From: an uncultured bacterium
Lineage (GTDB): Bacteria; Patescibacteriota; Minisyncoccia; UBA6257; 2-01-FULL-56-20
DNA: 13,233 bases
Direction: 5' to 3'
NCBI GenBank assembly: GCA_963844965.1
Contig: CAWJQC010000005.1
Coordinates: 1-13,233 of the forward strand
In this document: positions 1,368 through 12,454 of the stretch, in pieces
Numbering within the stretch: position 1 is the first letter of the stretch
Layout of the letters: each line of letters opens with the position of its first letter
Made by a program: the position numbers and the translations under genes
The notes under the pieces: model-generated
Told to the model about the DNA's origin: nothing
What the model saw: the letters and a program-made list of their open reading frames with translations, nothing else
Databases searched by the model: none

Positions 1368-1751
1368 TCACTTAGGCGGCAGAAGTTCTGCCACCGGCCG
1401 GGATAAGGGCTGACCGGCGGAGTTGGTCATCCTTGCAAACCAAAGCCCCCTCTTCCCGTTCCAGCGAAACCCGTCAATGACCGCCCTACCGGACCCGTGC
1501 CGACCCTTGCGGTAGCGGACCGTTGTCCCCTTCCGGATGACGAACTGCTTGTCATCGCTAGGAGGTGGTTCATCGAAATGCGGGCCAGACACTGAATCTC
1601 CGTTTCCGTTTTCTTCCTCCGCAGAGGGGACGGCGAAAATCTCACGCGGGCTCATCCCCACTGACCGACCAAACCGGAGCCAGATGCAAATGAATCCAGC
1701 CAGGATCACAAGGAACGCGATTAAAAAAAACATGGGTGGTACGTTTGGCAT
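1368..1751 (-). CDS. Small membrane-anchored protein, 127 aa (N-terminal TM helix, acidic linker, basic Gly/Arg-rich C-terminus), function unknown
   Basis: ATG at 1751 is preceded by GGAGGT (1763..1758) with a 6-nt spacer. A consensus promoter lies upstream. The N-terminus MPNVPPMFFLIAFLVILAGFICIWL is a hydrophobic helix. TGA stop at 1368-1370 is followed on the minus strand by hairpins. I recognise no homolog. Confidence 0.6.
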   Translation of the reverse strand: MPNVPPMFFLIAFLVILAGFICIWLRFGRSVGMSPREIFAVPSAEEENGNGDSVSGPHFDEPPPSDDKQFVIRKGTTVRYRKGRHGSGRAVIDGFRWNGKRGLWFARMTNSAGQPLSRPVAELLPPK

Positions 1752-1800
1752 GCTCACACCTCCAGAATGGATTTCTCAATAATGCCAGACAACTGTCTCC

Positions 1801-2031: not shown

Positions 2032-3027
2032 ATGATTAAAGCAATACGACCAAAGATCGTTGCAATTATAGGTCCAACTGCATCCGGCAAGAGCAAGCTA
2101 GCCATTAAGCTTGCACACAAATTCGGCGGTGAAATCGTCTCCGCCGATTCGCGCCAGATTTACCGCGGGATGGATATCGGGACTGCCAAGTTACCACTTG
2201 GCAAAATTCCCAATTTCCCCGCCTGCGCCGAGGCTTCGGCGGGCAGGCAATTTCCAATTTCCAAAATTCACCTTATTGACATCAAAAATCCCGACGAAAA
2301 TTATACCGCCGCCGATTACAAAAAGGATGCAATCGCCGCGATACGAAAAATTTTACGCAAGGGCAAACTCCCAATACTCGTAGGCGGCACGGGACTTTAC
2401 GTTAAAGCGGTCACGGATAATTTGGACATTCCCGCGGTCGTGGCCGACGAAAAACTCCGCCGTCGGTTGGAGTCGGAAGCGAAGAAACGCGGCTTGGACT
2501 TCTTGTTCAAAAAACTGGTCAAGCTTGATCCAGAAGCAGCTTATATCGTTGACCCCAAAAATCCGCGGCGCGTGATAAGAGCACTGGAGGTCACCATAAA
2601 AACCGGCAAGCCGTTTTCCGCACAACGAAGAAGGGGCGAGCCGCTTTTCGATTCGTTCATAATCGGCATTAAAACGCCGGGAGGTATGCTCAGTAAAAAA
2701 ATCAACGCGCGTGTGGACGAAATGATCAAAAACGATCTCGTGGGTGAAGCAGAAAATTTGCTGGAAAGATACGGACCAAGTCACAAAGCATTTGATTCCA
2801 TCGGCTACCGCGAGGTTATCCACTATCTGAACGGCGAGCTCGTGCTTGATGAGGCCGTGGAACTAATAAAGAAGAACACCAAAAACTACGCCAAGCGGCA
2901 AATGACGTGGTTCAGAAAAGACAAAAATATCCATTGGGTCGGCGGTGAAAAGGCGGCGTTCGAACTTACGAAAAAATTTCTGATTGGTCAGGGCAGCTGT
3001 AGCTTTTCGCGGAATAGGGTAAAATAA
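2032..3027 (+). CDS. miaA: tRNA dimethylallyltransferase (isopentenyl-tRNA transferase)
   Basis: P-loop IVAIIGPTASGKS, then ADSRQIYRGMDIGTAKLP, HLIDI and LVGGTGLYVKA. TAA stop at 3025-3027. It carries an extra ~13-residue insert between GTAK and HLIDI. Confidence 0.9.
   Translation: MIKAIRPKIVAIIGPTASGKSKLAIKLAHKFGGEIVSADSRQIYRGMDIGTAKLPLGKIPNFPACAEASAGRQFPISKIHLIDIKNPDENYTAADYKKDAIAAIRKILRKGKLPILVGGTGLYVKAVTDNLDIPAVVADEKLRRRLESEAKKRGLDFLFKKLVKLDPEAAYIVDPKNPRRVIRALEVTIKTGKPFSAQRRRGEPLFDSFIIGIKTPGGMLSKKINARVDEMIKNDLVGEAENLLERYGPSHKAFDSIGYREVIHYLNGELVLDEAVELIKKNTKNYAKRQMTWFRKDKNIHWVGGEKAAFELTKKFLIGQGSCSFSRNRVK
2203..2269 (+). repeat. In-frame mini-insert inside miaA: a GC hairpin (2221-2248) flanked by AAAATTCC/CAATTTCC direct repeats
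   Basis: GCCTGC-GCCGA-ggct-TCGGC-gg-GCAGGC forms a stem-loop. CAATTTCC-type repeats lie on both sides. It encodes LPLGKIPNFPACAEASAGRQFPISKIH, which is absent from typical MiaA between GTAKP and HxLIDI. Confidence 0.4.
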
Positions 3028-3031
3028 ATAC

Positions 3032-4064
3032 ATGGCCTCTGGTCGTTTTGAAATCCAATTCTTCGCGGGACTCCTGCTTTTGTCCGCCGCGCTCATGATT
3101 TTTGTTTTTTATCCATGTCTGAACGCGCTTGTCATCGCCATCGCGCTCGCCGTCATTTTCCATCCCATCTATGCGAGACTGCTACGTCTCATGCCGAAAT
3201 GGGAATGGCTTGCCGCCCTGATTACGGTCATGCTAACCATCGCAGTTATTCTCGTTCCGCTCACGATTTTCGGATTCAAAATCTTCGCGGAAGCACAGGC
3301 TCTTTACACGAGCTTTGCCTCGGGCGACAAAGGACCGCTCCTGGAATTTCTCCACGGCAAACTCGCGGAACTTACGCCCGGACTCAATCTAGACCTGACT
3401 CAATACACCCAGCAAATTCTTTCCGCACTGCTTGGAAACCTGGGATTCGATCTTCTCCAGGATCGTCGGCGTCTTCGGTACTTTCCTGCTGGCGCTTTTC
3501 GCTCTGTATTATCTCCTGAAAGACGGCTTGAAACTGAGAAGGGCAATGGTAAAGATCAGCCCGCTTTCGCCTGAGAATTCAGCCGAAATCGTAAATCGCC
3601 TTCAGACGATGACCGGTTCCGTAATTACGGGAACCGTCGCCATGGCTGTCATACACGGAATTCTCGTCGGCCTTGGATTTCTCTTGTTTGGACTTACAAA
3701 CCCGGTACTCTGGGGATTGGTTGCCGTCGTAGCGGCATTTATACCGATAATTGGAACAGCGCTGGTCGTCATCCCCGGAATATTCTGGCTTGTGCTCACA
3801 CAAAATCTCGCCGGAGCGATCGGTCTCGCGCTTTGGGGAATCCTTATGCTCGGGCTCATAGACAACATCCTCAGGCCGCGTTTAATCGAGCGCCGCTCAA
3901 AAGTCCACCCTCTTCTCGTTCTTCTTTCCGTCATCGGCGGCCTCGCGCTTTTCGGCCCGACCGGATTCCTTCTTGGGCCTCTCGTCTTGAGCTTGTTCCT
4001 TGTGCTTCTTGAAATCTATCCGGCGCTCATACTGAAACGCGGCGACAAAACACGGTCCGTCTAG
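3032..4064 (+). CDS. AI-2E family transporter / PerM-like (UPF0118) permease, with an apparent +1 frameshift near 3446
   Basis: Two overlapping ORFs (3032..3574 frame 2; 3432..4064 frame 0) together give a typical ~340-aa multi-TM AI-2E protein. Frame 1 ends its homology at ..LLGNLG. Frame 2 continues SIFSRIVGVFGTFLLALFALYYLLKDG, the family-conserved segment. Skipping one nucleotide after gga (3443-3445) joins them. TAG stop at 4062-4064. Tightly coupled to miaA (4 nt). Confidence 0.75.
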
Positions 4065-4234
4065 GCAAGTCCATCTTCCCAGACCTAAACAGGCGCCAAG
4101 CGAGCGGAAAACAACAAAAAATGCGTATGGTAAAATAGTAATAGACCCCCCACACCAAACGAGAAGTTTCCCGAATACCGAACGCCGCTTCTCGTTTGAT
4201 ATGAGGGTAAAGGTCGTGAAAAAAATATTTATAT

Positions 4235-4507
4235 ATGGCCAAACAAGTCATTAAGCGCGGGGGGAAACGCGAGCCATTCCGGGCCGAGAAGCTGAGGAAG
4301 TCTGTTCGCGCCGCCTGCAGGGACACCCACATGTCGCCGGTCTGCATAAAAAAGGTAGTAACAAAAGTTGCCGGCCCGGTTCTGCGGTTTGCCGCGAAGC
4401 GGAAGGTGGTCAGGGTAGCGGTGCTCCGGAAAAAAGTTCTCGCCGGACTACGCAAGACGGAACCGGCAGCGGCAAAGGCCTGGCTGCGTTACGAGAGACG
4501 GCACTAA
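4235..4507 (+). CDS. Stand-alone ATP-cone domain protein (90 aa)
   Basis: VIKRGGKREPFRAEKLRKSVRAAC ... AKAWLRYERRH matches the ATP-cone consensus VIKRDGR.EPFD..KI ... Y..YRE.R, the NrdR/RNR N-terminal regulatory domain. No catalytic domain is attached and no SD is present. Confidence 0.75.
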   Translation: MAKQVIKRGGKREPFRAEKLRKSVRAACRDTHMSPVCIKKVVTKVAGPVLRFAAKRKVVRVAVLRKKVLAGLRKTEPAAAKAWLRYERRH

Positions 4508-4557
4508 GCCCAAAAGTGGGGGCAGGTAGTTTCTCTGTGGGTTTGTTTTTCATATTT

Positions 4558-4597
4558 AAAAACAGCGGCTTAGATGAGCCGCTGTTTTGTTCTTTTT
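4558..4597. terminator. Bidirectional rho-independent terminator between the ATP-cone gene (+) and the M29 peptidase gene (-)
   Basis: AAAACAGCGGC-ttagatga-GCCGCTGTTTT is an 11-bp stem. A T-run (ttgttcttttt) follows on the plus strand. The A-run upstream (tttaaaaa) gives a U-tract for the minus-strand transcript. Confidence 0.7.
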
Positions 4598-4652
4598 CGG
4601 TGTTTCCGATGCAGGAGCAACCGATGCTTCAGTGAAGTGAAAAATTGTGCTC

Positions 4653-5870
4653 CTAAACCGTGAACTTACCGTCTTTGTAAATCACTTTCGCGCGGCCGCC
4701 TTTAAGATATGCCGTTATGGTTCTCGGAGCGGTGGAAATCAAATCCTCGTGGATGGCGGAATCATTGAAACCGAGCTTTGCCCAGCCGGATTTTCCGACT
4801 TTCGTCGGATTGCCGCTGTAACAGTTGTGGAACGAGGCTCCGACGGCGATGTGGGTGTTGCCGTTCGGGCCGCCGATATTTTCGTCATAAAGCGTCTCGG
4901 CCATGAACTTCGTTATCCTTGAAAATCTTTTATCCGTAAGCGAAAATTCGCCGACCTTATTCCCGCCGGGCACGCCGATCATCTGCTTCAGCAGTTTTTG
5001 ATTCCGCTTCGCTTTCGCTTCAACGACGACGCCTTTCCTGAATTTTAGCTCAATGCCGGTCATGAGATGGCCGTGCGTATATACTGGCTGATTGAATTTT
5101 ATCCATCCCTCGGTGCCGCGCCAATCCGGGGAAGTATATATCTCAAAGCTCGGCATATTCCGTCCGCCGCCGCCCTGCCAAAGCCGTCTCTCGCCAAGCG
5201 TAAGCCAAAGGTCCGCGTCCAAGCTGTTCACATAGAGTTTTTCAATATTCATACTGTTCAATCGCCGCCTGATAGCGCTGATCTGCCGTTCAACGCTCCG
5301 CCACTTGGCTATCGGATTTGAAGCATCCAAAAAGCACGCCTCTTCTATTTGACGCCAATACTCCGCTTCGCTCAATCCGGCTTCTTTCGCCATCGCCGGC
5401 GTCCCATAGAGAGCTATCGTCCAGGTGAACTTGCCGAGATTTTCTTTTTCGTCACGCCAGTCCCTGAATGGCTTCATGGACCGGCTCCTCGCGACAATTT
5501 TCTTGGGGTCCACGCCTTTCAGCGCTTCCATATCCGTATCACTCGCAATAAAAATGTAGTGGTCAATCTGGTCAATCAAGCCGCGGAAATAACTGCTCGG
5601 GAAGAAATTTATTTGGCGCTCCTTGGCGTTCACGTAAAAGTCGCGACTGATGTTGAATTCGTGGTCGTTGTTCGGCTGATAACTGGAAATGGTGTGCCCG
5701 CCGACCCTCGTGATAGCCCTCAGAAGTTCAGCGTAGAGAGGTTTGGCGTATTCATAAGCAACGATATAGACAACTTCTCCCCTTCTCACGCCCCGGCCGC
5801 CGCCGAGCGCGAAATTGACAAGGACGTCAGCATACTTGCTTATAATTTTCCGGCTGGGTTTATAGGACAT
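4653..5870 (-). CDS. Aminopeptidase, MEROPS family M29 (AmpS/PepS/aminopeptidase T-like)
   Basis: 405 aa. N-terminal KYADVLVNFALG..GEVVYI and C-terminal ETLYDENIGGPNGNTHIAVGASF fit the M29 thermophilic metalloprotease pattern. TAG stop at 4653-4655. Confidence 0.75.
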   Translation of the reverse strand: MSYKPSRKIISKYADVLVNFALGGGRGVRRGEVVYIVAYEYAKPLYAELLRAITRVGGHTISSYQPNNDHEFNISRDFYVNAKERQINFFPSSYFRGLIDQIDHYIFIASDTDMEALKGVDPKKIVARSRSMKPFRDWRDEKENLGKFTWTIALYGTPAMAKEAGLSEAEYWRQIEEACFLDASNPIAKWRSVERQISAIRRRLNSMNIEKLYVNSLDADLWLTLGERRLWQGGGGRNMPSFEIYTSPDWRGTEGWIKFNQPVYTHGHLMTGIELKFRKGVVVEAKAKRNQKLLKQMIGVPGGNKVGEFSLTDKRFSRITKFMAETLYDENIGGPNGNTHIAVGASFHNCYSGNPTKVGKSGWAKLGFNDSAIHEDLISTAPRTITAYLKGGRAKVIYKDGKFTV

Positions 5871-5944
5871 GGGACTTGCCGTTAATTACCGAACGAAGCC
5901 GCTCATTAGCCGCCACCAAAATTACTTTCCAGAAGTTTCCTCGT

Positions 5945-6352
5945 TTACTTCAACAGCTCGGTTGTTTTCCCATCAAAATGCTCTCCTTCGTCGGCCTCGG
6001 CTTCTGCTTTCGTCTTGTGAATAACGGCGTCCTTGTGGTTCGGCGGGGAATAGACCGTGTAGAGCTTCATCGGCTCGGCCTTGGAGGTGTTTATTATGTT
6101 GTGCAACGCGCCGGCGGGAACGACGACGGCGAAGCCGTCGCTAATCGCGTGCTCAACACCGTCCAAAACCGCTTTCCCCTCGCCCGCCTCAACACGGATG
6201 AACTGGTCCAGGTGGTGGACTTCGGCGCCGATTTCCTCACCGGGCTTCAGGCTCATCACCACAAGTTGGCTATTTTTCGCCGTGTACAAAACCTGGCGGA
6301 AATACCCATTATCCAAAGACGCTTTTTCTATGTTTATTACGTATCCTTTCAT
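5945..6352 (-). CDS. Small cupin-domain protein (cupin_2-like), 135 aa
   Basis: Single cupin barrel with GEEIGAEVHHLDQFIRVEAGEG and VVVPAGALHNIINTS. TAA stop at 5945-5947. Confidence 0.65.
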   Translation of the reverse strand: MKGYVINIEKASLDNGYFRQVLYTAKNSQLVVMSLKPGEEIGAEVHHLDQFIRVEAGEGKAVLDGVEHAISDGFAVVVPAGALHNIINTSKAEPMKLYTVYSPPNHKDAVIHKTKAEAEADEGEHFDGKTTELLK

Positions 6353-6418
6353 TGTTTTAAAAAATTTGTAATTGTCGACCTTGCTATAATTTTATCATTT
6401 TCTTAAAAATCTCGCGAA

Positions 6419-7024
6419 TTATTTACATAAGCTTTTTATATCCCTCACTATTTCTGGAAAAGTTTCCTGCGTAAAATGTCCCCGGTTTTTGAATACCCTG
6501 ACGCGCGCGCGGGGCAACACTTTCCTGTATTTCTCAAAATCTGCAAATGGTACCTCGGGGTCGTTTACGCTGTGATAAAGAAAAATCTCGCCGCCTTGTT
6601 TTTCCAACAATTTAAGATTTTTCGGCAGAACGAAATCCGCGAGAGAATAATCTTGATCCCTGTCATCGTGCGACGCAGAAACCAAGAACGTTCCCCTTAT
6701 CTTTTTCGGAAACTTATTCTCGGACAAATATTTCGCCAGAAAAACCGCACCAAGCGAGTGGCCAACGAAAACAACGCCATTTTTTATATGAGGAATGAGT
6801 TTTTTGAACCAAATCTTCCATTCCAAGTACTTGGCGTTAGTTGGATTTGGCATCCTCGGCGCTACCACTTCAAATCCACTGCCAAGTTCCCTGCACAAAT
6901 TCTCTTTCCAGTCTGTTTTTCTAAGTTGCCTAATGTCAATCCTGCGGGCTTTCAGATAGGATATATATTCCTTATACGTACCGAATGTGCGCACCCCGTG
7001 GATTACGATTACCTGTTTCTTCAT
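6419..7024 (-). CDS. Serine hydrolase of the RBBP9/YdeN family (alpha/beta-hydrolase fold)
   Basis: N-terminal VIVIHG, nucleophile elbow GHSLGA, HDDRD, and a C-terminal GHF..E...I...KSL.K tail that parallels RBBP9/YdeN proteins. 201 aa. Confidence 0.7.
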   Translation of the reverse strand: MKKQVIVIHGVRTFGTYKEYISYLKARRIDIRQLRKTDWKENLCRELGSGFEVVAPRMPNPTNAKYLEWKIWFKKLIPHIKNGVVFVGHSLGAVFLAKYLSENKFPKKIRGTFLVSASHDDRDQDYSLADFVLPKNLKLLEKQGGEIFLYHSVNDPEVPFADFEKYRKVLPRARVRVFKNRGHFTQETFPEIVRDIKSLCK

Positions 7025-7101
7025 GTGTTGACTATTTCAAAAATTTTTCAAAAATTTCTTTGAGCACCGCTGGGTTGCCACGGCCCTTTAACTTCCCCGG
7101 A

Positions 7102-7150
7102 CAGTAGAACTGCGATCGGCCTTCGGCCATCACAAAATCGCAGTTCACTG
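7102..7150 (-). terminator. Long composite hairpin downstream of gatB (14-bp outer stem with a one-base bulge enclosing a GGCC-ttc-GGCC hairpin)
   Basis: CAGT(A)GAACTGCGAT ... ATCGCAGTTCACTG inverted repeat at 7102-7116 and 7137-7150, starting 19 nt past the gatB stop (7169). There is no clean U-tract, so this is a terminator or RNA-stability element. Confidence 0.35.
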
Positions 7151-7168
7151 CCGGGCAGGCATCGCTTT

Positions 7169-8579
7169 CTACTTTAGAGCTTCAGTCAGTAATTTCCTTA
7201 ACTCCTCAGGATTAGCCCGACCTTTCGTTTTCTGCATTATCTGGCCGATGAGAAACTGCAGGCTCGCTGCCTTGCCCTTTTTGTAGTCCTCAACCGCTTT
7301 GGGATTTTTCTCTATGATACTCATTCACGACTCTTTCCAATTCGCTGGTGTCCGAAACCGTTTCCATACCTTCGCTCTTCACGATCTCCTCCGGGTCAAG
7401 GCCAGTTTCAAACATTTTTTTCAGAGCGTCCTTCGCTTGGCGGCTGCCGATTTTTCCCTGCTCAATAAGCGCGACGAGGTGCGCCAGATGTTCCGGTTCC
7501 ACTTTAATATCGGCAAAACCGATGCCGGATTCGTTCATTAGGCCCACAAGGTCGGATGTTAGATAGTTGAAAACCAGAACGGCGTCGCCGTCCGATTTTT
7601 GTTCCCTCAATTCGCTCACGGCTTCCTCAAAATACCCAGCGAGTGCGGGCTCGCCCACCAAGGTATCTGTTCTCTGCACACCCAATCCATATTCTTCTTC
7701 AAACCGCACGCGTTTCACATCCGGCAACTCCGGCAATGCGTCGCGCAGTTTTTCAATATCAAAAACTTTCGTTTCAAACGGCGGCAGGTCCGGCTCCGGG
7801 AAATAGCGGTAGTCGTGCGCCTCTTCTTTTGACCGCTGGCTCACCGTCATCTGTTTCACGTCATCCCAGCCGCGCGTCTCGTGCGCCACCTTTTCGCCCT
7901 TCTCCAAAATTTCCTGCTGGCGCTTAAGTTCATAAGCAATCGCCGCGCCGACTGCTTTGAACGAATTGATGTTCTTCAATTCCGTCTTCGTGCCCATATT
8001 CAAACTCACATTCGCTTCTATGCGCATCTGCCCGCGCTCCATATCAGCGTCCGAGACGCCCAAGTACCTCAAAATTAATTGAAGTTCCCGCGCGAATTTC
8101 ACGACTTCTTCCGCCGATTTCAAGTCCGGTTCGGTTACAAGTTCCATAAGCGGAACGCCCGCGCGGTTGAAGTCAACCAAACTGGAGTTGATTTTATCGT
8201 CATGAACCAATGTTCCCGTGTCCTCCTCCAGATGGACGCGCCTGACGCGCACGCCGTTCAGTTCCCCGCCTGAGACAATCGGCTGGTCGTATTCCGAAAT
8301 CTGGTAGCCCTTCGGCAGGTCGGGATAAAAATAATTTTTGCGGTCAAACTTCGCGACGGGATTGATTTTCCCACCCAAAGCGAGACCGACTTTGATAACC
8401 GACTCCACTGCCTGCATATTTATAACAGGAAGCGTTCCCGGATGACCCAAGCATATTGGGCAAACATTCGTGTTCGGATGCTTCTCGTCCGAGTCGTTCA
8501 GCGAATCGCAGAACATTTTTGTCCGCGTCCTGAGCTCGGCGTGGATTTCTAGACCAATGGTGGGTTTATATTTATCCAT
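7169..8579 (-). CDS. gatB: Asp-tRNA(Asn)/Glu-tRNA(Gln) amidotransferase subunit B, with an apparent +1 frameshift near 7319 separating the catalytic part from the C-terminal YqeY-like tail
   Basis: The 429-aa ORF (7290..8579) is GatB up to ..SELERVVNE. The adjoining frame (7324..7169) encodes IIEKNPKAVEDYKKGKAASLQFLIGQIMQKTKGRANPEELRKLL, the canonical GatB C-terminus (compare IVDEVIANNPQSVEDFKNGK..GFLVGQIMK). Removing one nucleotide joins them as VVNE-IIEKNPKAVEDY with no gap relative to homologs. Confidence 0.85.
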
Positions 8580-8596
8580 GTTGTGGGCTTACTTGT

Positions 8597-8660
8597 CCGC
8601 CGCAGGTTTAGCGAAGGCGGATGTTCCATGTAATCTATTCTAAACCGCCGCGCAGGTTTT
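8597..8660. repeat. Two direct repeats CCGCCGCAGGTTT (8597-8609) and CCGCCGCGCAGGTTTT (8645-8660) in the divergent gatB/bicupin control region
   Basis: Seen directly in the sequence, about 48 bp apart. One lies in the gatB 5'UTR and the other in the spacer of a candidate gatB promoter (minus-strand TTTCCA-N17-TAGAAT). Confidence 0.3.
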
Positions 8661-8669
8661 GGAAATAGC

Positions 8670-8697
8670 TTGACGAAAAACAGAAACCGTATAAAAT
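8670..8697 (+). promoter_or_regulatory. Candidate promoter TTGACG-N16-TAAAAT for the bicupin gene
   Basis: -35 at 8670-8675 and -10 at 8692-8697. The ~47-nt leader ends in the AAAGGAG SD, 9 nt before the ATG at 8745. Confidence 0.45.
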
Positions 8698-8744
8698 CCT
8701 ATCAGCATCCCAATCTTGGTTTTGACAGAAAGGAGCTCTGCAAG

Positions 8745-9473
8745 ATGAACAAAATGAACGTCTACGAGGAGCTGCCACTCGTGGCAAATGTCTGCAACCA
8801 ACTTCTGCGCGAGGTTGATAAAACGCCAGCATGGTCCATGGCGCACGTCCTTATGAACCCACGAGCATCGTCGCTGCCCCATCAACACTACAACACGGAG
8901 GAGTTATATATCATAACTCGCGGCACGGGGAATTTGGTCAAGAGGAGCGCTGGAAAGGAGCGGGCGCTCGTCGTAAAACCCGGAGATGTGATCCGAATCC
9001 CGCAATATGCTCACCACAAACTTGAGAATGCGGGAATCGTTAGTTTGGAACATTTGGTTTTAGCCACGCCGCCGTTCAACCCGACAGATGTTTATCTGAT
9101 TAAGGACTGGCGGGATCCCGACACGGCACCACAACCCTTCGTACAACCGCTAGTAACCGATTGTTTTGACGGAGCCAAAATTGTCGCCTACAAATTTCCC
9201 GACACGGCGAGCGTCGCCTTCGGCTGGGTTATGGCCGAAACTTCGCGGCACAAACTACCTCACTACCATAAAGAAATAACAGAACGCATCTTCGTGGTCG
9301 AAGGCGGGGGGTTTATAGAGCTCGAGGGTATTCTCCATGAAATCGTCACCGGCGACTGGCTCACCATAAAGCCGCGCGAAATCCACGCGCTTCGCAACAT
9401 CAACGAACAGCACATGGTCGTTGTCTGCATCTGCACGCCATGCTTCAGCATGGACGACGTATATTATATCTAA
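8745..9473 (+). CDS. Bicupin protein (two metal-binding cupin barrels), possibly a sugar-phosphate isomerase or dioxygenase-type enzyme; specificity unknown
   Basis: Start chosen at ATG 8745 with SD AAAGGAG, not the upstream TTG at 8670. Domain 1: PHQHYNTEELYIITRG ... PGDVIRIPQYAHHKLEN. Domain 2: PHYHKEITERIFVVEGGG ... GDWLTIKPREIHALRN. Both fit cupin motifs G(x)5HxH(x)3-4E(x)6G and PxG..H...N. TAA stop at 9471-9473. Confidence 0.7.
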   Translation: MNKMNVYEELPLVANVCNQLLREVDKTPAWSMAHVLMNPRASSLPHQHYNTEELYIITRGTGNLVKRSAGKERALVVKPGDVIRIPQYAHHKLENAGIVSLEHLVLATPPFNPTDVYLIKDWRDPDTAPQPFVQPLVTDCFDGAKIVAYKFPDTASVAFGWVMAETSRHKLPHYHKEITERIFVVEGGGFIELEGILHEIVTGDWLTIKPREIHALRNINEQHMVVVCICTPCFSMDDVYYI

Positions 9474-9481
9474 TCGTCCTC

Positions 9482-9513
9482 ATGCCCGCTCGCCAAGAAC
9501 GGGCATTTTAGTT
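9482..9513 (+). terminator. Rho-independent terminator after the bicupin gene (ATGCCCG-11 nt-CGGGCAT followed by TTTAGTT)
   Basis: 7-bp perfect stem at 9482-9488 and 9500-9506, then a T-rich tail, 9 nt after the TAA. Confidence 0.6.
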
Positions 9514-9554
9514 AAAAATCTTTATTGACAGAAGGCTACTTAATTATAAAAATC

Positions 9555-9573
9555 CCCCGGCTTTCGCCGAGGG
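9555..9573 (-). terminator. Minus-strand terminator hairpin (CCCGGC-tttc-GCCG(A)GGG) followed on the minus strand by AUUUUUAUAAUU
   Basis: This is the reverse-strand hairpin plus U-tract. It lies 8 nt beyond the TAG at 9581-9583, the stop of the alternative-frame C-terminus, and 57 nt beyond the ORF-track stop at 9630. Confidence 0.5.
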
Positions 9574-9580
9574 ATAGGAA

Positions 9581-10424
9581 CTAAACACGCGCTTCAAGAT
9601 TCAGCGCTAATTCGCCAGAATCGACGCGTTCAAGCAGCCGCACGATTGTCGCATACAGTTCGTGCGTTGAGCCGCACCGCCATTCCCAAAGTATTTCGCG
9701 CTCTCCGCGCATTCCTACCGGATACGGATAAGTGGAAGATTCCACGATTATGGGTCGAAAAGTCTGGCAAGAATTTTTGAAGCTGGCCGATGGGTTTCTG
9801 AACACCTTCCGGCACCCACTCCGGCGGCTTGACACCGAACCTGCGCAAATACATTTTCAGCTTGGATGATTTTTCATCGGTGTCCACGTCTCTCGGCGTG
9901 CCGTATCCTTCGAAATACACGACTGCATAGCGCTCCGCGTCAAGCAAGACGATATTGCCGGCAGTCAATGAATCCTTAAGCGGCAATGCCTCATTCACAA
10001 GCGTATGATATTCTTCGTTATATCGCCTGCAAAAGTCCGCAATAAAGTTCCAGTCGTCTTGGTCATAAACAACGGGGAGTTTCGGTGTTTCCTCAAGAAT
10101 ATTCTCCTCCCGATAATTACGCAAAGAAACTCTGCTGTATTTCTTCCAGAAGCTCCTCAGTTCCTCAAGCTTCAATCCACCACGCGGCCAAGATTGAAAA
10201 GCTGGACAGTTGAATCCTGCGTCAACGAGCTGCTGAATCCGGATATTCTTCAGAGGTAAAAGTTGTATCTTCGGGACGACTATGTTTCTTTTACGAAACA
10301 GATTTCCAATAAGATGCCCGAGCGGCGAAGGCCCATCGGCAGCTTTTGTGATATTTATAATGCCGAGCTTCTTCAATATGCGAGCGATTGCTTCGCGCTG
10401 GCTTCCAGTTCGCTTCATATACAC
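9581..10424 (-). CDS. Uncharacterised ~280-aa protein; the C-terminus probably continues in the +1 frame, ending at 9581 rather than 9630
   Basis: Start at ATG 10424 with GGGGGA 6 nt upstream. No family recognised by eye. The ORF-track frame ends in an Arg/Ala-rich tail (GRNARRARNTLGMAVRLNARTVCDNRAAA) that looks like out-of-frame translation. The alternative frame (..GMRGEREILWEWRCGSTHELYATIVRLLERVDSGELALNLEARV) uses ordinary codons and stops 8 nt before the terminator hairpin. The frame switch would be near 9720-9740. Confidence 0.5.
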
Positions 10425-10453
10425 CGTCCCCCTTATAAATCAACGCTGCCCCT

Positions 10454-10481
10454 ATTTTACAAAATTTTTTGAAAACGTCAA
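10454..10481 (-). promoter_or_regulatory. Candidate promoter TTGACG-N16-TAAAAT (minus strand) for the 9581..10424 gene
   Basis: Minus-strand read: caTTGACGttttcaaaaaattttgTAAAATaggggg. -35 at 10481..10476 and -10 at 10459..10454, about 30 nt upstream of the SD/ATG. Confidence 0.5.
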
Positions 10482-10506
10482 TGGTTGCAGATAGCTCGTT
10501 TCGGCC

Positions 10507-10535
10507 TTGACACTGCTTACTGTTCTCCGTTAATC
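10507..10535 (+). promoter_or_regulatory. Possible divergent promoter TTGACA-N17-TTAATC for the 10661..12454 operon
   Basis: Consensus -35 at 10507-10512 and a weak -10 at 10530-10535, leaving a ~120-nt leader containing a small palindrome CCGCA-tcg-TGCGG (10556-10568). Confidence 0.3.
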
Positions 10536-10660
10536 TTCCGATAGGAGCATGTGTCCGTTTCCGCATCGTGCGGATTCAGCGACTGGCTCGTTTTACAACT
10601 TAGCCGAACCAGAAGTGTCCATTGATGACTGCTGGCGGTTTCCTGCAAAGGGAGAACGCC

Positions 10661-10978
10661 ATGCAAACGGCCAATATCACGCTTGAACGCGTCCTGCCGA
10701 TTGAGCAAGCTTTTGCGGCGGCACGAGAAGCAGTCCTTGAAAAAGCCGACGGTGAGAATATTTTTTTCTACAAAGACAAAACATTGCAGCTTCAAGATCT
10801 TTATCCGAGAGAACTGAATTCCGCCGCACTTTACCTCTTGGAAGAAAATGTGGCTTTTCAGCGCGAACTGCGGAAATATCTTCTGGAGCGGTATGGAATT
10901 GACACGCTGCGACTATCCGCGGTCGTGCACCTCGGAAACCGAAAAGGGTATCATCGGAATGATTCCCCCTTACGTTGA
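10661..10978 (+). CDS. Hypothetical protein (105 aa); possibly the N-terminal part of a single protein continuing into the ParB/Srx-like ORF
   Basis: ATG 10661 is preceded by AGGGAG with a 6-nt spacer. The upstream TTG/ATG at 10622/10625 lack an SD. No recognisable domain. It ends in a TGA immediately after a C5 run (10965-10969). Confidence 0.5.
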   Translation: MQTANITLERVLPIEQAFAAAREAVLEKADGENIFFYKDKTLQLQDLYPRELNSAALYLLEENVAFQRELRKYLLERYGIDTLRLSAVVHLGNRKGYHRNDSPLR

Positions 10979-11318
10979 AATTTCGGAGGAGTTGGTGAGG
11001 ATCATACCGCTTGACGGAGATCGCGAACCTCCTCCGTCGCAAATACTTAACGTGCCGATTTTGATCGACGGATTGCACCGCGCGGCTCTTGCGGATGAAG
11101 AAAAGATTCCGCTTCGCTGCATCGTCTGTAGCGGAAACTTTGACCGCCGATACCTCTATACCTCTTACGCCGCGCATGGGTCCGAAATAAAGTTATACAA
11201 GAAAGTTCCACCAGTGAAAAAACGTTATAGGCGACAGAAAGAATATTCCTTCATGCGACCACTTGAGGTTTTCCGATTAACAAACGTCGGAGTTGGCGGC
11301 GAGTATGACAGGAAGTAA
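10959..11318 (+). CDS. ParB/Sulfiredoxin-fold (ParB N-terminal-like) domain protein, ~119 aa
   Basis: VEISEELVRIIPLDGDREPP parallels the ParB N-terminal box (I..I.pNP.QPR). ILIDGLHRAALADEEKIPLRCIV parallels the GxxR/GCHR motif region of ParB/Srx (iaGeRRwrAa..g...iP.iV). It overlaps the preceding ORF by 20 nt in the +1 frame. Its stop (11316-11318) sits inside the SD of the next gene. Confidence 0.5.
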   Translation: MIPPYVEISEELVRIIPLDGDREPPPSQILNVPILIDGLHRAALADEEKIPLRCIVCSGNFDRRYLYTSYAAHGSEIKLYKKVPPVKKRYRRQKEYSFMRPLEVFRLTNVGVGGEYDRK

Positions 11319-11329
11319 GGAGTGATTAC

Positions 11330-12454
11330 GTGCCAAAGAAAACGCTTGTGATTATCACCGGTCCTTCTCGCGTCGGTAAAACAACGATCATCGATAAACT
11401 TCTTGAGATTGTGCCATCTTCAGCGCGATTCGTAACAACGACTACGCGGCCACCACGACCCAAAGAACGGGACGGTGTGGACTATTATTTTCGGAGCCGT
11501 GAGGAATTCAAAGCTGGCATAGAGAGCGGCGAGTTTATCGAGTGGGTGGAATCATACGGGCATTTCTATGGAACTTCCAGAATTGAACTTTCGAGACTGA
11601 TGGACAGCAATTCTGTACTGTTTGCCGCTACTGACACTCGCGGAGTCGTCGGCCTCAAGCAGGAATTTCCTCAAGCCGTCACCGTCTTCGTTAGGCCGGG
11701 CTCAATGGAAGAACTGGAAAAACGGATTGCAAACAGTACCGAGTTAACACCCGACTCTATTCAAAAAAGAATGGCTGCGATTACAGATAAAATGCGGCGT
11801 GCCGGCGATTTTGACTACTTAGTTACGAACGCCGAAGGAAAACTCGGCGACGCAGTACAAGCGATATTCAGTATACTCAAAAACCATACCACCTGGCGCA
11901 TCGGCTTTGACCTCGACGGCGTGGTCATAGACCATACCGCGAATAAGATATCTGTTGCCGAAAGATTGGGGATCCGACTCGCTCCGCGAGAGACACCGTC
12001 GAATATCATGAAGATGAAAGTCGACCCGCAGATCTACAGAAAGATCAAAAAAACGATATATGGTGACCTCTCCGTAGAACTGCTAGCCCCGATAATGCTC
12101 GGAGCGGAAAATGTTCTGGCCAAGCTTAAAACGGCAAAATTTCCGCTCTTCCTTATCTCCATAAGACCGACCACCGAAGAACCGATAGCGTGGCTTAAGA
12201 ACCGCGGTTTATGGGAAAAATATTTCGACAGCCAAAATGCATTTTTTGTAAAGGAACGGGTCGAAAAGGATGAAATTGCGCGCAAACTCATGCTGGATAT
12301 TTTTCTTGATGATGAACCGAGTACGCTACGTACAATGCCTTCGGTACCGAAAAAATTTCTTTTCGATCCTTATGGCGTTTACCCGGAAAACCTAGAGTCT
12401 TACGCTGTGGTGTCTGGCTGGAAAGAGTTCGCTGATGTGATTTTGTCTCTATAA
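11330..12454 (+). CDS. Fusion protein: N-terminal guanylate kinase domain plus C-terminal HAD-superfamily NT5C-type 5'(3')-deoxyribonucleotidase-like domain
   Basis: GTG start with SD TAAGGAG 7 nt upstream. Gmk hallmarks: GPSRVGKTT, TTTRPPRPKERDGVDYYF, FIEWVESYGHFYGTSR, FDYLVTNAEGKLGDAV. The C-terminal half shows IGFDLDGVVIDH (HAD motif I), FLDDEP and VVSGWKEF, which parallel NT5C-family nucleotidases (D.DGVL, LIDDnP, vsGW.d). TAA stop. Confidence 0.8.
   Translation: MPKKTLVIITGPSRVGKTTIIDKLLEIVPSSARFVTTTTRPPRPKERDGVDYYFRSREEFKAGIESGEFIEWVESYGHFYGTSRIELSRLMDSNSVLFAATDTRGVVGLKQEFPQAVTVFVRPGSMEELEKRIANSTELTPDSIQKRMAAITDKMRRAGDFDYLVTNAEGKLGDAVQAIFSILKNHTTWRIGFDLDGVVIDHTANKISVAERLGIRLAPRETPSNIMKMKVDPQIYRKIKKTIYGDLSVELLAPIMLGAENVLAKLKTAKFPLFLISIRPTTEEPIAWLKNRGLWEKYFDSQNAFFVKERVEKDEIARKLMLDIFLDDEPSTLRTMPSVPKKFLFDPYGVYPENLESYAVVSGWKEFADVILSL

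Follow-up and report, generated by a model that had tools for sequence, protein, structure and literature searches.

Organization of the contig

The 13,233-bp stretch of DNA analyzed here (the window) is one whole contig in NCBI and ENA, CAWJQC010000005.1, which belongs to a metagenome-assembled genome (MAG) of an uncultured bacterium and has a GC content of about 50%. Four of its genes are each split into two open reading frames (ORFs), and the downstream ORF is always in the +1 frame relative to the upstream ORF. The four are an AI-2E/PerM permease gene, gatB, an unnamed conserved gene, and a gene of the ParB-CE family (PF24392). Read from the left end, the contig carries thrS (which runs off that end), miaA, the permease gene, a stand-alone ATP-cone ORF, an M29 aminopeptidase gene, a small cupin gene, a serine hydrolase gene, gatB, a bicupin gene, the unnamed gene, the ParB-CE gene, gmk with approximately 190 extra residues, and an ORF of 153 amino acids. 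The nearest genomic GatB loci are found in uncultured Parcubacteria/Patescibacteria MAGs with an identity of at most 69%, and the gatB-miaA-thrS neighbourhood is found again in many of the MAGs that carry them. GatB is 69% identical to that of one of the two nearest genomes (L001) and 66% identical to that of the other (L002), and gatB is the only part of the window that aligns with these genomes at the DNA level.

Four split genes restored by the removal of one base

The start positions of the two ORFs are offset by 400 nt in the PerM gene, 1255 nt in gatB, 589 nt in the unnamed gene and 226 nt in the ParB-CE gene, and each offset equals 1 modulo 3. Deletion of one base yields one complete ORF per gene, encoding a protein of 343 (PerM), 469 (GatB), about 278 (unnamed) or 218 (ParB-CE) amino acids. 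The repaired proteins show no gap at the junction when aligned with their nearest homologs, and their lengths match those of the homologs. The initial annotation held that one nucleotide must be skipped at each of four loci and that the rejoined PerM and GatB proteins align with homologs without gaps. The ORF offsets, the Pfam matches of the separate halves and the repaired full-length proteins confirm the first statement, and the alignments confirm the second. The uniform +1 direction had also been used as an argument. Four events out of four in the same direction give p = 0.125 in a two-sided sign test, so the direction by itself is weak evidence.

Orthologs examined for all four genes are single ORFs of the repaired length, and none of them is frameshifted. 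Conservation is about equal on both sides of the break in all four genes. The identity to the nearest homologs upstream and downstream of the break is 0.75 and 0.80 in PerM, 0.64 and 0.69 in ParB-CE, 0.57 and 0.51-0.54 in the unnamed gene, and 0.69 and 0.55 in GatB, the last value being calculated over only 49 amino acids. No further stops or insertions and deletions (indels) were seen in the four genes. According to exact cluster look-ups, the truncated products (a GatB of 429 amino acids, PerM halves of 180 and 172 amino acids, and a fragment of 262 amino acids) are recorded only on the window contig. For PerM, gatB and ParB-CE, protein searches turned up no other near-identical copy.

A fifth disruption was not found among the remaining genes of the window. 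ThrRS, MiaA, the M29 aminopeptidase (a single PF02073 stretch, 4-406 of 406), Gmk (domain intact at profile positions 2-179 of 182 in Pfam), the cupins, the hydrolase and the ATP-cone protein are all unbroken. A fifth frameshift in the opposite direction was considered for the gaps at 1263-2031 and 4065-4652 and rejected, as reading them in six frames gave only the ATP-cone ORF and an ORF of 129 amino acids.

Position of the extra base

To place the junctions, each base around a site was deleted in turn, and the protein encoded by the shortened sequence was scored with a homolog profile. Long homopolymers are absent from all four sites, where the longest run is T4. The junctions proposed for the PerM gene and gatB in the initial annotation are acceptable by this measure, while the other two are 20-30 nt away from the positions that the homologs support.

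Site 1 lies in the permease gene (3032..4064, plus strand), which is deposited as ORFs 3032-3574 and 3432-4064 and encodes 343 amino acids with one base removed. The halves match PF01594 (AI-2E_transport) at positions 2-131 and 135-326, and the repaired protein matches it in a single stretch, 2-326 of 327. The PerM homologs have 343-344 amino acids and are 76-79% identical. The site is at 3445..3449, where TTCG (3446-3449) occupies the place of one residue between the codons GGA and ATC, in the context GGA-T-TCGA-TC. The best deletion falls at 3445-3447 and scores 445.2 bits, reading GNLG-S-IFS. Deletion of C3448 scores 443.0 bits and gives a leucine, which the two closest homologs also have (GGG TTG ATA at the DNA level). 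The predicted corrected sequence is GGATCGATC or GGATTGATC. The junction near 3446 that had been suggested for this gene is borne out.

Site 2 lies in gatB (7169..8579, minus strand), with ORFs 7290-8579 (429 amino acids) and 7169-7324 (51 amino acids), and 469 amino acids when one base is removed. As deposited, the gene shows GatB_N and a split GatB_Yqey domain (2-107 and 100-148), which becomes a single stretch (2-148 of 148) after repair. The C-terminus is in the same frame as the rest of the protein in 12 genomic homologs. The extra base lies at 7316..7327, within TGAATGAGTATC on the gene strand. A TGA in the +1 frame at 7327-7325 bounds the slot, and a TCG stands directly 5' of it at 7330-7328. 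Deletion of base 7319 scores best (215.2 bits, VVNE-IIE), with all positions from 7319 to 7326 at 213-215 bits, within about 2 bits of each other. The earlier placement near 7319 agrees with this slot and with its best score. Removal of T7319 would create GAGATC, a potential GATC site, and the corrected sequence is predicted to be GAGATC or a neighbouring variant that is one base shorter.

Site 3 lies in the unnamed conserved gene (9581..10418, minus strand), deposited as ORFs 9630-10424 and 9581-9835 and about 278 amino acids long after repair. It belongs to no Pfam family. Its 11 homologs have 277-312 amino acids, and all are single ORFs. This family of approximately 280 residues has about 12 detectable members, carries the motifs YPYPVG and WEWR.GS.H.LY, and has no Pfam model. 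The best deletion falls at 9758-9762 and scores 401.7 bits, within a site at 9755..9762 that reads GAC TTT TCGA CCC on the gene strand where the homologs have D-F-R-P-I. Arginine occupies the affected codon in 8 of the 11 homologs. The predicted corrected sequence is GACTTTCGACCC. An earlier placement of the junction at about 9720-9740 has to be given up, because its score does not exceed 387 bits and a repair there would disrupt the conserved YPYPVG motif.

Site 4 lies in the ParB-CE gene (10661..11318, plus strand), which consists of an ORF at 10661-10978 (105 amino acids) and a +1-frame ORF ending at 11318, and encodes 218 amino acids when repaired. Repair raises the Pfam score from 20.5 bits, below the cutoff, to 33.1 bits, above it. 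The 11 homologs have 150-252 amino acids and are all single ORFs with PF24392. The site is at 10933..10938 and reads CAC CTC GGAA ACC, where the homologs have H-L-x-T-E-K-G. Deletion at 10933-10935 scores best (314.2 bits, HL-E-TEKGII). The C5 run at 10965-10969, which had been proposed as the junction, scores 291.4 bits, so that both the position and the homopolymer context were wrong. The join of the two ParB-like halves had further been regarded as only one possible reading; with the deletion scan and the gain in Pfam score, it is as well supported as the other three. Removal of one G leaves CTCGAA, which contains TCGA, and the corrected sequence is predicted to be CACCTCGAAACC or CACCTGGAAACC.

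A second assembly of the same strain

A protein search with the unnamed gene returned a protein of 220 amino acids that is 100% identical to it, from the Logan assembly of run ERR10755942. Further Logan contigs were traced through exact proteins, giving four contigs and 5,938 shared bases. They cover window positions 8322-10928 (L081), 5488-6549 (L082, 100% identical), 11068-11975 (L084) and 4093-5453 (L085). The identity to the window is 99.8-100% over the 5,938 bases, and the two assemblies therefore represent the same strain. The Logan paper does not state that runs were chosen by sequencing platform.

Only five clusters of differences separate the two assemblies in the shared bases, with about 3 substitutions in 5.9 kb. 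The first is exactly frameshift site 3. At 9757 (minus strand), the window reads TTTTCGACC and Logan TTTT-GACC; the second assembly is without the C at this position and reads TTT TGA CCC, the window being one base longer. The second difference is an intergenic substitution at 9537, GTAGCC in the window and GTCGCC in Logan when read on the minus strand. At 11593 (plus strand), the window has TTTCGAGA and Logan TTTC-AGA, which breaks gmk in Logan, and at 11651 (plus strand), also inside gmk, the window has TCGG and Logan TCAG. The fifth difference is at 5029-5030 (minus strand), GGCGTCGTCG in the window and GGCA-CGTCG in Logan, and it breaks the M29 aminopeptidase gene in Logan.

Half of the differences between the window and Logan are indels that break genes. 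Since gmk and the M29 aminopeptidase gene are intact in the window and broken by 1-nt deletions in Logan, the Logan read set makes indel errors. Judged from the sequences, gene-breaking indels between otherwise near-identical DNAs are the signature of a sequencing process and not of natural divergence. The differences are also not scattered at random. All five clusters are at or beside a CpG, and four of the five are on the C or G of a CpG in TCG context. Such positions make up 7.5% of the bases, which gives a binomial probability of about 1.5e-4 for four clusters in five.

At site 3, the second assembly has an in-frame TGA (L081:1171-1173, corresponding to the region of window positions 9758-9755) where 8 of the 11 homologs carry arginine. 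This CGA>TGA change may have come from a C>T miscall, or it may be a genuine nonsense allele that arose in the population by CpG deamination.

Coverage by the Logan contigs is interrupted between 10928 and 11068, a hole of 139 nt that includes site 4. A k-mer assembly would leave such a hole if the reads were inconsistent there.

Sequence motifs at the frameshift sites

The best repairs place the deleted base against TCGA at three of the four sites. Site 1 becomes GGA-TCGA-TC, site 3 is TT-TCGA-CC, and site 4 can be CC-TCGA-AA. The chance that at least three of four random four-base slots are repairable to an abutting TCGA is 3.6e-4, a value calculated post hoc.

Several palindromic tetramers are rare in the window, where approximately 51 copies of each are expected. 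CTAG occurs 9 times, GTAC 19 times, TCGA 21 times, ACGT 28 times and GATC 32 times, and CGCG is over-represented with 116 copies. Low counts of this kind are consistent with restriction-modification acting on TCGA and GATC. The errors give a hint that TCGA, and perhaps GATC, is modified in this organism, in agreement with the scarcity of these two tetramers.

Insertion of a T into GATC was also considered as a common cause, on account of GTATC/GATAC sequences near sites 2, 3 and 4. The homolog alignments move sites 3 and 4 elsewhere, and repair at the GTATC of these two sites destroys the YPYPVG motif and lowers the profile scores, so that the GATC idea is left only at site 2, as one of several possibilities.

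Origin of the frameshifts

Three origins had been offered for the extra bases without a choice between them: a systematic insertion-type error of assembly or base calling, a decaying genome with a mutational bias, and translational recoding. The first is favoured because a second assembly is without the extra base at the one site that it covers, because the differences between the two assemblies are at CpG and TCG, and because the sites themselves are at TCGA. Decay and recoding are not favoured. In our judgement, the four +1 frameshifts are probably motif-linked errors of the deposited consensus and not features of the organism. The true genes, encoding PerM, GatB, the unnamed protein and ParB-CE at the repaired lengths, are almost certainly intact.

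Each frameshift would then be a single spurious base, located at or against TCGA at three or more of the four sites and, at the fourth, adjoining a TCG and a potential GATC. The proposed mechanism begins with DNA that would carry a modified base in the TCGA motif. An indel-prone long-read platform, most plausibly nanopore, would give ambiguous pyrimidine or purine calls at this motif, and a consensus or polishing step may write two bases for the one ambiguous base. Site 3 would illustrate all three states. The homologs imply TTT-CGA-CCC (F-R-P), the Logan k-mer assembly has TTT-TGA-CCC, as if the C had been read as T, and the deposited sequence has TTT-TCGA-CCC, as if T and C had both been written. 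Sites 1, 2 and 4 would be errors like site 3. A single error process that depends on context would produce all four errors in the same direction.

Nanopore consensus errors near methylated motifs are known to show T/C and A/G ambiguity (Lohde et al. 2024, Genome Res, PMC11610573; PMC11610603). The pattern described here resembles those Oxford Nanopore errors in recurring at a short motif and not at random or in homopolymers, in the ambiguity of T with C and of A with G (here at 9757, 11651 and 5030; strand-specific mismatches at modified bases in the published cases), and in surviving consensus building, so that false differences arise between identical strains. The two also differ. The cases of Lohde et al. 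are substitutions in cultured isolates, with indels unmentioned (PMC11610573), whereas in the present MAG 1-nt insertions give rise to false pseudogenes. In contrast to the published motifs, TCGA/TCG is here deduced from the positions of the errors alone.

Several points weigh against this explanation. We infer both the nanopore platform and the modified base, for run ERR10755942 and for the deposited MAG alike. Most of the nanopore errors that have been linked to methylation in the literature are substitutions and not insertions (PMC11610573). The second assembly covers site 3 alone among the four sites, and it is not intact there either; its in-frame TGA requires at least one additional error or, alternatively, a genuine CGA>TGA variant. 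The errors of the window are insertions, whereas the indels of Logan are deletions, and consequently the two consensus procedures must behave differently. The link with TCGA was noticed post hoc, and its probability becomes about 6e-3 when corrected for the 16 palindromic tetramers. Finally, site 2 is not assignable to a motif.

The four genes could instead be real, recent pseudogenes of a decaying organism or strain whose mutations are biased towards insertions, perhaps with a hot spot around TCGA/CpG. The deposited sequence does carry the lesions, and the Logan assembly is lesioned in the unnamed gene at the same codon, with TGA for the arginine of the homologs. CGA>TGA is a classic CpG deamination change, and Parcubacteria-type organisms have reduced genomes, a general property that agrees with decay. 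Buchnera and Blochmannia provide a precedent in that their decaying symbiont genomes contain frameshifted genes, some of them rescued by transcriptional slippage at long poly(A). The window resembles these genomes in having several genes with single-base frameshifts, including essential ones, in a small-genome bacterium. The symbiont lesions occupy runs of at least about 9 A and have been confirmed by accurate sequencing, whereas the longest run here is far shorter and an independent assembly disagrees. Moreover, 4 of about 14 genes including gatB would have been hit, yet they have acquired no extra stops, no second indels and no loss of downstream identity. The lesion at site 3 is not reproduced as such, as the same-strain assembly is without the inserted base. 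Since Logan breaks other genes that are intact here, each of two near-identical strains would need its own fresh pseudogenes at a divergence of about 3 substitutions in 5.9 kb. We therefore regard pseudogenization as unlikely. A related proposal, that the extra bases are real and derive from a burst of 1-nt insertions at TCGA, for example by error-prone repair at a restriction/modification target, appears very improbable. If it were true, a Parcubacteria-like lineage would be giving up PerM, the GatB C-terminus and two conserved genes simultaneously, or expressing them through an unrecognized +1 correction. In a weaker variant, only the CGA>TGA change of the second assembly would be real, as a nonsense polymorphism in the population.

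A chimeric consensus of two coexisting alleles would also make the contig wrong, with population heterogeneity and not base modification as the cause; at site 3, for example, CGA and TGA would have been merged to TCGA. The distribution of bases at this site suits the proposal, with T and C in the window, T in the other assembly and C implied by the homologs. So does the interruption of the Logan contigs on either side of site 4 (10928 and 11068), which resembles the behaviour of a de Bruijn graph at a branch or a coverage gap. The clustering of differences at CpG/TCG and of sites at TCGA would be left unexplained, and so would the gene-breaking indels of Logan, which makes this origin a little less likely still than pseudogenization. 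The least probable origin, to which we give hardly any credence, is recoding by +1 ribosomal frameshifting, by transcript slippage that restores the frame, or by the use of UGA as a sense codon. It would account for the shared +1 direction and could draw on the slippery U-UUU context at site 3, on the GGAAACC sequences near sites 1 and 4, and on the stop codons of 12 solid genes, seven of which end at TAA, five at TAG and none at TGA. None of the retrieved PerM, GatB, unnamed-gene or ParB-CE homologs conserves the frameshift. The contexts GGA-UUC-G, GAG-UAU-C and CUC-GGA-A of sites 1, 2 and 4 cannot re-pair in the +1 frame, and only UUU-U at site 3 could; long homopolymers for slippage are absent from the sites. 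As a shared recoding signal, GGAAACC was rejected, with 3 copies against 2.4 expected and a different register at sites 1 and 4. UGA recoding was likewise rejected, because relatives stop at TGA (for example, in gmk of the related contig L087), because in-frame TGA is absent from about 3,300 codons of the window, and because the lone TGA in Logan (L081) aligns with a conserved arginine and not with tryptophan or glycine. The classical +1 frameshift of prfB/RF2 occurs at CUU UGA C with an upstream Shine-Dalgarno-like element. Its downstream frame is also +1, with one nucleotide to skip. In contrast to prfB, the shifts seen here are not conserved in orthologs, share no slippery codon, affect four unrelated genes, and present neither an in-frame stop nor a rare codon to the A site.

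Other features of the contig

The stops of the 12 solid genes include those at 1259-1261, 3025-3027, 4062-4064, 4653-4655, 7169-7171 and 9581-9583, none of which is TGA, and the proportion of TAG (five of 12) is unusually high. The upstream frames of all four frameshifted genes run into TGA. The lack of TGA stops probably reflects sampling and a lineage preference, because relatives use TGA.

At 11330-12454 (plus strand), an in-frame fusion joins guanylate kinase (residues 4-183) to about 190 further residues that start with RIGFDLDGVV. The extension has a HAD-like DxD motif by eye and no Pfam match. The Logan contig L084 matches the window over the fusion point. In a related lineage (67%), gmk is an ordinary gene of 185 amino acids with a TGA stop. 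The ParB-CE gene, gmk and the unnamed gene are adjacent in the window (9581-11318) and in two contigs of the related lineage (L087:777-3095 and L088:353-2671), and the order and orientation of the cluster differ between the window and these contigs.

Two small ORFs lie between the larger genes. The ORF of 129 amino acids between thrS and miaA (1368-1757, minus strand) has an N-terminal hydrophobic segment, a TGA stop and no Pfam family. Its exact product is absent from the protein collection, and it is a candidate gene. The stand-alone ATP-cone protein (4235-4507, plus strand) has 90 amino acids and matches PF03477 at 1-86 of 88, with no adjacent zinc-ribbon or reductase domain. Rfam and tRNA scans of the window gave no matches.

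Implications

The pattern of four frameshifts does exist in the sequence, but most probably it does not reflect the organism itself. As biology, the four frameshifts matter little, and their relevance is to the quality of the data. On this public MAG contig, a false frameshift occurs about once per 3 kb. Because the errors are outside homopolymers, homopolymer-aware filters would not catch them. In downstream databases, false frameshifts of this kind raise the number of apparent pseudogenes and divide proteins into separate entries. GatB is part of the tRNA-dependent amidotransferase, an enzyme that is normally required when AsnRS or GlnRS is missing. A functional GatB and a functional PerM should not be counted as lacking in the organism.

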